A stretch of DNA of 10,963 bases from a virus. Shown one piece after another: positions 1 through 2,566 of this stretch. Under the pieces are notes generated by a model. The model saw only the letters and a program-made list of their open reading frames with translations. It was not told where the DNA came from and did not search any database. The stretch is from UHGV virus genome UHGV-0234540; one strand, written 5' to 3'. Every line of letters begins with the position of its first letter. Within the stretch, counting starts at the first letter, position 1. Made by a program: the position numbers and the translations under genes.

Positions 1-126
1 CGACATAATCTGAATCTGAGACAACATCTGGCAAGGCTGGGACGGAAGTCGCTGTCGTTCTCAAAATCGGTGGAGCTGCATGACAAAGTCATCGGGCATT
101 ATCTGAACATAAAACACTATCAATAA
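1..126 (+). CDS. 3' end of an ORF entering from upstream (41 codons), product unknown
   Basis: Only + frame 1 is open from position 1 and runs to TAA at 124-126; the other two + frames hit stops within 12 nt. No motif recognised. Confidence 0.25.
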
Positions 127-357
127 GTTGGAGTCATTACCGGGAAACCGCGATATCGTTAATAACGATGTCGTCTTTATTTATCTTGTCATAATAAAAA
201 TGCTTCCCGGAAAAAGTTTTAATAAATGACATTTCGTTCTCCACTTTATATGCGCTGCACCGCGCTGAATTTTGGGAAAAGGAAGCCCTCGCCATCCGGC
301 GATTATTGAGTCAATTACGTTTCAATAGATGCCCCCGCAGGGGCGGTTAGTTTCTCC

Positions 358-446
358 ACAAAACAGAGAAGAACACCTGCGGTGGCAGCCGCCCGGATGG
401 ATTGGGTTATGAGCCCGTCGTCCGGTGATGCTCTTCTCTGTTTTGT
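358..446. repeat. Long hairpin: perfect 15-bp inverted repeat ACAAAACAGAGAAGA (358-372) / TCTTCTCTGTTTTGT (432-446), extended by CACC (374-377) / GGTG (424-427), enclosing a ~46-nt GC-rich loop
   Basis: Arms read directly and checked as exact reverse complements. Lies in a 330-700 GC-rich block where no reading frame on either strand looks protein-like. Confidence 0.5.
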
Positions 447-770
447 AAAAAGAGCGGTGCCAGCCGGAAGCAAGTGTACAAACTGGTACCGCCAAAGCAG
501 TGGCTGTTGTGGTGCCGGGTGCCTCCCGGTGCCTGGCGAAGGTTGCACACCAGGCGGGTGGGTATCCACAGAAGGTCGACTGTCAGCCTCAACCTTAACC
601 CGCGTGCGCTGAGCCGCATTCACCACAACGCTAAGGATTCTCTCTGGTTGAAAATACTTAGCTGTTATGTGCCTGCTTTTAGCCACATCAGGCGAGGTGG
701 ACCTGGTTATTCCCCAACAACAAGGATTCGGTTAATCTTGATACCCCCAATAACATGGTGATTATTTAAG

Positions 771-1274
771 ATGGACAAATTTGATAGAAGTGCACAAAGG
801 CAGTTGTTACAAATACTGTATGATGCTCATCCTTATGAAATTTCTGATGATGCGTTGCAGTCTGTTCGTGACGCATTTGGAGATGATAATGTCCTAATTT
901 CGAACTTAATTTATCTCGAAGAACATGGCTTGATTAAGAATGCTCTTGATTATTACTTGGATGGCATAAATATAAATATTCCTGAATTAAGAATTACTAA
1001 AGATGGAATTGATTTCATTCGTGATGATGGAGGTCTTAAAGCTATTCTTGGGATTATGACAATAAGATTGCATGATGAGACTCTCTGTGAACTTGAACGT
1101 ATCATCAATAGTTCTACTTCTGCCACGACTGAAGATAAGAAGAAATTACTTTCTCAGCTTCGAACGCTTCCTGCCGACGCCATAAAACAGCTGACGATTC
1201 GATTACTTGGTCAGGGGCTTGACCATCTGCCGGACGTATTTCACGTAATTCAAAAAGCCCTCCATTCTCTGTAA
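771..1274 (+). CDS. Hypothetical protein (167 aa), AT-rich moron; possible small winged-helix-type protein (tentative resemblance to DUF2513-like phage proteins, from memory)
   Basis: Clean ORF with ATG at 771 and GGTGA 9 nt upstream. First two-thirds is markedly AT-rich relative to its neighbours. Protein-like composition. Oriented convergently to the repressor gene and followed by an intrinsic terminator. Confidence 0.6.
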   Translation: MDKFDRSAQRQLLQILYDAHPYEISDDALQSVRDAFGDDNVLISNLIYLEEHGLIKNALDYYLDGININIPELRITKDGIDFIRDDGGLKAILGIMTIRLHDETLCELERIINSSTSATTEDKKKLLSQLRTLPADAIKQLTIRLLGQGLDHLPDVFHVIQKALHSL

Positions 1275-1476: not shown

Positions 1477-1641
1477 GTTGCTAACGAATCATCCGGTCAT
1501 TCATACGCCACCGGCGGCTACTTCGTGGGCGTCCTGCCTGTTCGTTATCTTTGATATAAAATCTAACTTAACTTAGTTATTATGGCAAGAGAAAACACCA
1601 AACTTTTCTTAGTTCGGTGCCTTAGTTAGAGAAGAGAGGTC

Positions 1642-2268
1642 TTAGAGTTCGTATTGAACTCCTTTGACTACACCAATGATAAGGCAATTACCATTGATAG
1701 GGATGTTGGGATACCGAGGATTTAATGGCACTAAAAACTTTTGAGGGCCATCGATGACTAATTTTTTTACTGTAGCTTCGTTTGTTCCATCAAGTCGAGC
1801 GATGACTATTTTTCCATGACGAGGTTCTGCATCTGGATCTACAATCACTGTTGCGCCTTCTGGTATTGTTGGGAGGCCATTAGGGTTAGTCATGGAGTCA
1901 CCTTTAACCTCTAATGCAAATGAGTTATCACCAATCTTTAATGATGTATCTACCCACTTGTCCACTTCACTAAACACTTCTGCTGCCCTGCACTCAGTAA
2001 ACTGCCCAGCCTGAACCCACGATATTACAGGAACTCTGCGCATGTTTGTGACGAGTTTGCCTTCAAACTCAGCACCATAAAGAATGTAATCTATTGACGT
2101 ATTGAAGAACTTCGCTAATTTCGAAAGTGCCTCCCCACCAGGGGTATTGATGTCTTTCTCCCAGTACCCCACAGCAACGTCGCTTACTCCACAAAATTTA
2201 CCCAATTCTTTCTGGGACGTTCTGGTAACTCTTCTCAGAGCTTTTATACGCTGACCAACCGTTTCCAT
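1642..2268 (-). CDS. cI: Prophage repressor, cI/LexA-like (N-terminal XRE-type HTH + C-terminal S24 peptidase autocleavage domain)
   Basis: 208-aa ORF. N-terminal HTH (QKELGKFCGVSDVAVGYWEKD). Probable Ala-Gly cleavage site in WVQAGQF. Catalytic Ser in the KGDSM motif and Lys in ATVKKLV, as in LexA and lambda cI. Divergent from a cro-like gene. Confidence 0.9.
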   Translation of the reverse strand: METVGQRIKALRRVTRTSQKELGKFCGVSDVAVGYWEKDINTPGGEALSKLAKFFNTSIDYILYGAEFEGKLVTNMRRVPVISWVQAGQFTECRAAEVFSEVDKWVDTSLKIGDNSFALEVKGDSMTNPNGLPTIPEGATVIVDPDAEPRHGKIVIARLDGTNEATVKKLVIDGPQKFLVPLNPRYPNIPINGNCLIIGVVKGVQYEL

Positions 2269-2365: not shown

Positions 2366-2566
2366 ATGACAACTGACGATATCGAAAGCTACTTCGGCAG
2401 TATTGAGAAAGTTGCTGCTTTTTTCGGCATAACAACTGAAGCCGTTTATCAGTGGCGAAACCGTCCGGGCCAGTTAATTCCAAAAGGACGTGCAGCAGAA
2501 GCTGCATATAGAACTTGCGGACGGTTGCCATTTAAACCTGAGCTTTATGAAAAATCTAATGGATAA
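2366..2566 (+). CDS. cro: Cro-like transcriptional regulator (66 aa)
   Basis: Small ORF divergent from the repressor, with an SD. Motif FG...V...FGIT.EAVYQW matches the P22/434-type Cro pattern recalled from memory. Confidence 0.8.
   Translation: MTTDDIESYFGSIEKVAAFFGITTEAVYQWRNRPGQLIPKGRAAEAAYRTCGRLPFKPELYEKSNG

Follow-up and report, generated by a model that had tools for sequence, protein, structure and literature searches.

A chain of conserved RNA structures, among them a widespread three-way junction, in the early-left leader of a lambdoid prophage

The DNA studied here is a stretch of 10,963 nucleotides (nt) from the virus genome UHGV-0234540 (the whole stretch is called the window below), in which a reading made from the sequence alone had singled out positions 330-700 (the block) as hairpin-rich and non-coding. 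The block is the promoter-distal part of a long untranslated early-left (PL) leader, on the minus strand, in a lambdoid prophage of the SfV/SfII/ST64B/e14 type. It sits between a cI-type repressor gene and yfdR, along the path of leftward early transcription, and it consists of a chain of conserved RNA structures, with no gene among them. Three of these structures carry most of what follows, and in the direction of transcription they are module A, a multi-helix RNA; t1, an intrinsic terminator; and H2, a three-way junction. Module A adds a new variant to a known small RNA (sRNA) family, t1 is a terminator of the ordinary kind whose location makes it interesting, and H2, very widespread but so far uncatalogued, contains a look-alike of the initiator-tRNA anticodon stem-loop. 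The conserved structured region runs from about 331 to 705, slightly past the block, and the longer leader extends to about 1552. Taken together, the evidence makes it very probable that the minus strand encodes a functional structured leader RNA. The sequence-only reading had been right about a structured non-coding RNA, but had missed its strand, t1, the surrounding operon, the modular make-up and the tRNA look-alike.

The outer helix of H2, P1, is the perfect inverted repeat at 358-372 / 432-446 that the sequence-only reading had pointed out, and all 15 of its 15 base pairs (bp) are indeed there. The arms extend to 25 nt with 84% complementarity, and a 15-bp inverted repeat was attained by only 3 of 500 shuffles of 140-900. 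The fold of the window itself gives P1 21 bp, where the consensus of the relatives has 19. P1 encloses P2, an irregular arm, and P3, a hairpin whose length varies in relatives from 14 to 45 nt. In the minimum free energy (MFE) fold, the U-run of t1 pairs with GGAGAAAC (357-345), and P1 grows to about 25 bp.

The structure of H2 was derived with RNAalifold from 27 distinct sequences. It contains 33 pairs, 98.5% of the cells are paired, and 9 pairs have changed on both sides (46 cells), which none of 500 shuffles reproduced; slid controls gave 37-52%. The covariation spans three helices, and the stems of t1 and of the flanking hairpins covary as well. A comparison of this kind across homologous loci had been proposed as a check on the idea of a structured non-coding RNA, and the idea came through it well. 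A covariance model of H2 (R1) scores the window at 104.5 bits on the minus strand and 34.4 bits on the plus strand. Across loci the model finds exactly one match each, with 80-112 bits in the sense direction and 20-42 bits on the opposite strand, and in the complete genomes of SfIV and mEp460 it finds no second copy, the PR side included. H2 has no Rfam match at E<=10, and a full-text search of the literature for its sequence found no paper.

The composition of the block agrees with this picture. Its guanine-plus-cytosine (GC) content is 0.571, against 0.394 in 142-329, 0.380 in 701-1300 and 0.497 in the whole window, so the earlier description of a GC-rich block in AT-richer surroundings was right. 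The phage structural genes stand at 0.515, and the elevation is one relative to the flanks, not to these genes. On the minus strand, 296-705 folds with -172.1 kcal/mol (z = -6.1) and 356-448 with -47.5 kcal/mol (z = -7.1). The small hairpin GCCCC-CGCA-GGGGC also exists as described, although its place is 331-344 and not 330-342, a shift of 1-2 nt.

Nothing in the block looks like a protein-coding gene, as the sequence-only reading had also held. None of the four open reading frames (ORFs) in the block has a Pfam match. On both strands, no reading frame is open across all homologues, and the shortest stop-free stretch is 16-23 codons. The lengths of H2 among homologues (93, 94, 95, 97, 112, 114, 116 and 118 nt) differ by amounts that are not multiples of 3, and its variable columns fall 13/12/18 on the codon positions, with no third-position excess. 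A conserved frame, a codon-position bias and indels in threes are thus all missing. A short upstream ORF starting from (A/G)UG just after H2 (MEK...) was considered and rejected: its length, its frame through the hairpin H3 and its stop position are not conserved, and in one relative it stops after 3 codons.

Several database records do annotate hypothetical proteins here (SfII_35, SfIV gp34/gp35 and YmfH of K-12), and ORFs of 57-123 codons occur on both strands, so that the block might be thought to encode at least one small protein. In addition, a ymfH clone that was over-expressed in a screen triggered the toxin of retron-Sen2 (bioRxiv 10.1101/2020.06.22.160242). Against this stand the lack of a universally open frame, of length changes in threes, of a third-position excess and of a Pfam match, together with compensatory base changes and G.U pairs that are consistent with RNA; moreover, PGAP leaves the majority of the E. 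coli copies unannotated. We consider a small protein extremely improbable, and the annotated hypothetical proteins are probably artefacts.

The K-12 case is instructive for this question. In the cryptic prophage e14 (locus L258, 5070-5381), ymfH (b1142) occupies the same stretch as module A, t1 and an H2 that has decayed (71.5 bits), upstream of xisE-intE, and it is probably no protein gene. It has been placed in an intE-xisE-ymfH operon and in the SOS-linked YmfT iModulon (PMC12132413), which fits co-transcription of the leader with xis-int. Since the ymfH insert essentially equals the RNA leader, one may speculate that the effect in the retron-Sen2 screen was an effect of RNA.

H2 is not peculiar to this prophage. 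A search with its loop sequence, using one genome per species, found it in 23 enterobacterial species, including members of Citrobacter, Enterobacter, Kosakonia, Mixta, Leclercia, Phytobacter, Erwinia, Pantoea and Klebsiella. The segment made up of t1 and H2 is present in 2776 of 5426 complete E. coli genomes, where it is mostly unannotated. At locus L204 H2 comes straight after a PL-like promoter, and module A and t1 are both absent. At two further loci (L029, 4886-4972 on the minus strand, and L178, 7948-8048 on the plus strand) a diverged H2 (41-44 bits) has a Q-type antiterminator gene and an intrinsic terminator before it and the lysis genes (holin/lysozyme) after it. These three places suggest that H2 marks the beginnings of phage operon mRNAs and does not belong to one particular gene or terminator.

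Directly 5' of H2 lies t1, a conserved intrinsic terminator. Its run of five to seven T ends at a fixed distance 5' of H2 in 115 of 119 distinct contexts. The hairpin before the T-run is GC-rich, has a folding energy of -10 to -25 kcal/mol (-16.5 kcal/mol for t1 in the window) and is made of at least six unrelated stem sequences, which covary. A terminator scan had missed t1 because its loop is longer than 8 nt.

The next structure upstream, module A, folds with -56.6 kcal/mol (z -3.1) and shows compensatory changes when compared with ST64B. In Rfam its span at 508-627 on the minus strand gives a partial match to STnc100 (RF02076) with 35.6 bits, E 9.4e-6, over model positions 31-147 of 206. 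The Rfam search proposed by the sequence-only reading therefore had a mixed outcome: at the gathering threshold the whole window has no match, and at E<=10 the region 140-1500 yields only this partial match and noise. Its architecture, in which a closing helix and the hairpin CCGGGAGGCACCCGG are followed by an intrinsic terminator, is that of STnc100 as compared with locus L035. Like STnc100/PasD, module A has a core closed by a long-range helix (UGGUG...CACCA), ends in the identical terminal hairpin, stands next to an intrinsic terminator and occurs in lambdoid prophages. In the canonical STnc100 (L035, 132 bits) the closing helix reads GCAUGGUG/CACCAUGC; that of module A is given in Table 1. 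A member of the family would be expected to appear as a discrete RNA of about 160-210 nt. Module A differs in that its inner hairpins are not the same. STnc100 also lies in the late region near Q, stx or esterase genes, whereas module A is in the early-left leader, and the STnc100-like part is 629-506 only and does not cover H2.

Among 119 distinct contexts there are 41 distinct variants of module A, of 58-162 nt, all with the same closing helix. At locus L217 (1077-1203, minus strand) the slot of module A scores as an Rfam tRNA with 43.9 bits (gathering score 29). The acceptor stem is the closing helix, and the anticodon region holds a 64-nt insert containing GGUUCAUAACC (CAU loop); ARAGORN makes no call there. 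The variable modules and the tRNA-like occupant of L217 together suggest that the slot acts as an exchangeable cargo position for tRNA-like and sRNA-like RNAs. The window itself has no tRNA gene by either the ARAGORN cloverleaf or the Rfam tRNA model, the tRNA-fMet anticodon hairpin in H2 being all that is copied from a tRNA. A wider ARAGORN scan, over 30 related loci as well as the window, likewise gave neither a tRNA nor a tmRNA. At four loci (L236, L027, L010 and L202) the leaders 5' of module A contain T-arm-like hairpins, GGUCCGUUCGAUUCGGAC and GCAGGUUCAAUUCCUGC, followed by ...CCACCA, with no tRNA called by ARAGORN. These hairpins are possibly tRNA fragments or T-loop modules.

Given this build, module A and t1 could form a free-standing sRNA gene with its own promoter, of the STnc100/PasD type, Hfq-dependent and pairing in trans, with H2 as an unrelated element of a 5' untranslated region. 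This would partly overlap with the leader reading. The canonical STnc100 copies of EDL933 are transcribed, with low ribosome coverage, and the family is expressed in lysogens (PMC5331693); it has been linked to the PasD prophage sRNAs, which have seed regions and targets (bioRxiv 10.64898/2026.05.13.724894). The conserved linker UGCUGUGUGUAGUCUU before the terminator in most relatives looks like a seed. The window's own linker, however, is unlike it, no convincing sigma-70 promoter was found 5' of module A in the window, and no target was found in phage genomes, the search having covered these and not the host. Furthermore, conservation extends upstream through P0 and more hairpins, and in moron-free phages as far as PL. 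A free-standing sRNA gene is thus possible but rather unlikely. The sRNA HnrS (PMC13502914) was also considered, and is a separate late-region sRNA, different from the block.

Table 1. Positions in the window of the leader structures and of the neighbouring genes and elements
Feature	Position	Strand	Remarks
IS1 copy, end	1..141	.	100% identity to plasmid IS1 copies
yfdR 5' fragment (5'-deoxynucleotidase)	142..232	-	Cut by IS1; ATG at 232, Shine-Dalgarno sequence at 242-237
Junction hairpin GCCCC-UGC-GGGGC	331..344	-	At the yfdP-yfdQ deletion; stands in place of the leader's own hairpin H3
Motif (G)GGAGAAACUAACC / GGAGAAAC, directly 3' of H2	345..357	-	From alignments and MFE fold
H2, 91-nt three-way junction	357..447	-	P1 447-427 / 377-357; P2 425-393; P3 392-379
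P2 apical hairpin GGGCUCAUAACCC	404..416	-	Equals positions 29-41 of E. coli initiator tRNA-fMet; three G-C pairs and loop CUCAUAA
Intrinsic terminator t1	447..493	-	Stem 493-483 / 463-454, with one A.C mismatch here; U-run 451-447 (UCUUUUU)
Single-stranded linker AGCCACUGCUUU	494..505	-	Conserved UGCUGUGUGUAGUCUU in most relatives
Module A, 124-nt multi-helix RNA	506..629	-	Closing 9-bp helix GUUGUGGUG / CACCACAAC; final hairpin CCGGG-AGGCA-CCCGG
Hairpin P0, 13-bp stem GCUAAGUAUUUUC / GAGAAUCCUUAGC	630..662	-	GCGCACUCC / GGAGUGCGC at the same position in other genera
Single-stranded conserved motif GGCACAUAAC	664..673	-	GGCACAYAAC in other genera
Upstream leader hairpin CCAC...GUGG	683..700	-	CACCAC/GUGGUG in SfII, e14 and Kosakonia; from alignments and MFE fold
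Moron, 167 amino acids, AT-rich	771-1274	+	No Pfam match; inside the early-left leader, in opposite orientation
boxA GCUCUUUAACAA	1439..1450	-	Identical to the rrnB leader boxA
L1, conserved RNA at the 5' end of the PL leader	1485..1545	-	AACGAACAGGCAGGACGCCCACGAAGUAGCCGCC-stem-loop-GGAUGAUUCG, about 60 nt
Candidate PL promoter TTGCCA-17-TAGATT	1560..1588	-	Among ACTAAG operator-like repeats also found between cI and cro
cI-type repressor gene	1642..2268	-	HTH_3 and Peptidase_S24 (Pfam)
cro-type gene (P22_Cro)	2366-2566	+	Pfam

The position of the block as a leader is clearest in relatives whose early-left genes are intact. The block matches the Shigella phages SfII, SfIV and SfV, coliphage mEp460 and Stx2c phages, and it matches the Salmonella phage ST64B at 74% identity. 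In SfIV, mEp460 and ST64B it lies immediately 5' of yfdP-yfdQ-yfdR, and loci of 23 species have the same arrangement. In ST64B, which has no moron, the spacing between cI and yfdP is 815 nt of non-coding DNA. Both yfdP and yfdQ are missing from the window and from SfII. Window positions 344-296 correspond to the yfdQ-yfdR spacer of intact phages (SfIV, mEp460, K-12), and because these have the same hairpin after yfdQ, the hairpin at 331-344 marks the junction of the yfdP-yfdQ deletion. The hairpin that belongs to the leader at this place, H3, covaries (58 flanks).

The early-left unit of this prophage is therefore a relic, with a moron within the leader on the opposite strand, yfdP-yfdQ deleted and yfdR cut by IS1. 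The truncation and the deletion together show that the prophage's left arm is decayed. The proposal of the sequence-only reading that the block is a mosaic junction or remnant explains a part of it, namely the hairpin left by the deletion and the exchangeable slot at 629-506, and leaves the rest aside.

A role for the block as a regulatory element of the moron was another of the early suggestions, and this one found no support. The RNA is on the opposite strand, homology to other phages ends at about 755, shortly before the moron, and at the same locus other phages have different morons or none. The moron is present in 77 of the 5426 complete E. coli genomes, at >=99% identity in all of them, as opposed to 2776 for the segment of t1 and H2, so the block does not travel with the 771-1274 gene and is no accessory of it. 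Just 5' of the moron are direct repeats at 712-725 and 745-758 on the plus strand (CCCCAACAACAAGG / CCCCAATAACATGG, 33 nt apart), which are common to SfIV-type phages and are possibly a protein-binding site in the moron's promoter region.

The same facts bear on the broader notion that the inverted repeat works as DNA, whether as a cruciform, a recombination site or a protein-binding site, or that the block controls the neighbouring moron. As plus-strand RNA, the perfect 15-bp repeat is almost as stable (-46.2 kcal/mol), and the end of the deletion adjoins it. But the covariance model scores 70 bits better on the minus strand, several of the conserved pairs are G.U on that strand only, and the moron and the element are unlinked. 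A function at the DNA level, or in control of the moron, is extremely improbable.

On the side of the moron that faces cI, the leader reading leads to a promoter. ACTAAG / CTTAG operator-like repeats flank cI on both sides (1560-1640 on the minus strand and 2269-2365), and from these and from its consensus the site at 1560-1588 is taken to be PL. A terminator-like hairpin lies behind cI at 1619-1587. At locus L026 the motif GGCACAUAAC, which in the window stands near the upstream end of the block, comes immediately after a PL-like promoter with operator repeats. L1 is found directly 3' of promoters with at least six different operator types, and its stem II shows double compensatory changes in 13-14 sequences. 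It lies 5' of H2 in 57 of 105 contexts. The boxA is of the nut/rrn type of antitermination site, lies outside 330-700, and stands at a fixed +92 from the start of L1 in 24 distinct contexts, the window included. Rfam has no match for L1 or boxA, and no conserved hairpin was seen after boxA in the flanks. The hairpin just before boxA is the moron's terminator on the plus strand (1451-1472).

A cis-acting RNA in the early operon of a phage without an apparent N gene brings to mind the put sites of HK022, and the block might be a put-like processive antiterminator RNA which drives RNA polymerase through the early-left terminators. In these phages the interval from PL to the first early-left gene showed no N-like gene, there is a terminator to be passed, and the conserved L1 comes right after PL, as putL does. 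Like put, the leader is a cis RNA in the early operons of an N-less lambdoid phage with terminators after it. However, put consists of about 70 nt with two stem-loops right after PL and a second copy after PR, and the block is unlike this in sequence and fold: it lies about 900 nt from PL, its H2 is 3' of t1, it exists in one copy per phage genome with no partner on the PR side, and H2 also occurs where the terminator is absent (L204). Module A, H2 and L1 were compared with putL and putR, taken from the HK022 genome and numbered as in the cryo-electron microscopy paper, and showed no convincing similarity in sequence or structure; an identity with putL/putR was rejected. A put-like role for the block is accordingly quite unlikely. 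L1 occupies the position that putL has in HK022, yet is not similar to it.

A further parallel is that to the nutL / N leader of lambda and to antitermination in rrn leaders. Shared with these are an untranslated leader after PL with a consensus boxA, and a long helix before the first cistron. In lambda, a hairpin cut by RNase III lies between nutL and N. The window is unlike lambda in that neither an N-like gene nor a boxB behind boxA was seen, and its boxA is outside the block and present in only a part of the relatives.

Small three-way-junction or tRNA-like RNAs within the leader of the phage operon that they control are also known from C4 of P1/P7, CI of P4 and IsrK of Gifsy-1. C4 and CI RNAs are released by RNase P. 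The block differs from them: it has no match to C4/CI (RF01695, clan CL00128) or isrK in Rfam at E<=10, and no complementary target for the H2 loops was found downstream. IsrK, for its part, is reported to act both as a terminated sRNA and as a read-through mRNA (PMC4825925). In mEp460 (L005, 33457-33645 on the plus strand) isrK (67 bits) and a C4 antisense RNA (83.6 bits) lie adjacent to one another, inside an ORF annotated as a transcriptional regulator/antirepressor, whose start is probably over-extended.

From these elements a mechanism can be proposed. Transcripts from PL would carry L1 and, where present, the rrn-type boxA, and the long untranslated leader would thereby be shielded from Rho, as boxA with Nus factors shields other long untranslated RNA (PMC7665894). 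A fraction of the transcripts would stop at t1, which would attenuate early-left genes that are potentially harmful. The transcript ended at t1 would leave the STnc100-like RNA, whose closing helix resembles a tRNA acceptor and may allow trimming. The RNA that reads through would contain H2, and its outer helix of 21-25 bp is a plausible RNase III or stability element. The tRNA-like tip of H2 might then dock a conserved host factor and so tune how the first cistron is processed or translated, or how stable its RNA is. As a whole, this scheme, in which t1 attenuates transcription and gives rise to an sRNA and H2 controls the read-through mRNA, seems somewhat probable.

A number of points weigh against it. 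The STnc100 match is under the gathering score of 47 bits and covers a middle portion of the model, so that module A is not a member of the family by that measure, and 33 of the 119 contexts have either no recognisable module A or a different one. PL is predicted from promoter consensus and operator repeats, and the transcripts starting from it would in this prophage have to traverse the moron in antisense. As L1 and boxA each occur in a part of the contexts, neither can be a general requirement. Complexes at rrn-type boxA act mainly against Rho, and would not by themselves account for the passage of t1. Lastly, a search of the window, SfIV, mEp460 and ST64B for a conserved target complementary to the H2 loop or the linker gave only an antisense self-match and inconsistent weak matches.

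The tip of H2 deserves separate treatment. The E. coli initiator tRNA gene metZ reads CGUCGGGCUCAUAACCCGAAG, and 14 consecutive nt of it are identical to H2, with the same partition into stem and loop. None of 3000 shuffles gave the 14-nt match, and when all tRNAs are allowed for we estimate the chance of such a match at about 1e-3. The 13-mer GGGCUCAUAACCC is exact in 123 of 128 distinct contexts, while the surrounding stems, the repressors and the downstream genes vary, and this invariance across phages with different proteins suggests a partner in the host. The cryptic copy in e14 of K-12 is without the CAU loop and reads GGGUUAAUAACCC. Base pairing between the H2 loop and the region around the first gene's start codon was also considered. 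It fits AUGAG starts and not the AUGGC starts of the E. coli type, and is unsupported. The metY-rimP leader of E. coli, which combines a tRNA-fMet gene with terminators and a processing hairpin, was examined as well and is not homologous.

A leader hairpin that copies a tRNA anticodon stem-loop has a precedent in the operator of the E. coli thrS mRNA. H2 is like it in this respect, and unlike it in that the tRNA copied is the initiator, the element is phage-borne, and no autoregulated synthetase gene is linked to it. One may ask, then, whether the resemblance is functional, with H2 imitating the anticodon arm of the initiator tRNA so as to bind a host component: MetRS, an anticodon nuclease (for example VapC/MvpT), or the 30S P site together with IF3. 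It would act either in cis on initiation at the first cistron or as a protective decoy. The 14 nt shared with tRNA-fMet comprise three G-C pairs and the full 7-nt loop, and H2 presents them as an apical hairpin of 3 bp and 7 nt. The 13-mer stays the same where repressors and downstream genes differ, the cryptic K-12 copy has lost the CAU loop, and H2 is made first after the leader terminator, or directly after PL. On the other hand, the idea is drawn from resemblance in sequence, the two tRNA stem pairs beneath the G-C pairs are not retained, a single copy per transcript would be a weak decoy, and the resemblance could be that of an inherited tRNA fragment retained for structure. Functional mimicry in this sense is unlikely. 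A further reading, equally unlikely, is that H2 is a new class of phage RNA that displays the initiator-tRNA anticodon stem-loop on a three-way junction at the start of early-left (occasionally late) mRNAs; it might occupy or recruit the 30S P site and so gate initiation, or act as a decoy or sensor for a toxin that cleaves initiator tRNA, such as the VapC/MvpT of Shigella and Salmonella, which are hosts of several such phages.

An RNA that is unannotated or misannotated thus stands at the head of the early-left operon in about half of the complete E. coli genomes and, among enterobacteria, in prophages of at least 23 species, and several spurious ORFs could be removed from the annotation. The operon governs excision, recombination and host take-over. 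The modular leader, with its 5' element, boxA, exchangeable sRNA/tRNA-like slot, terminator and three-way junction, offers a testable model for leftward regulation in N-less lambdoid phages. The cargo slots also suggest that the STnc100/PasD sRNA family derived from tRNA-like occupants of such slots in phage leaders. If the initiator-tRNA look-alike should turn out to be functional, it would represent a new kind of interaction between phage and host, at translation initiation or in tRNA-directed defence.

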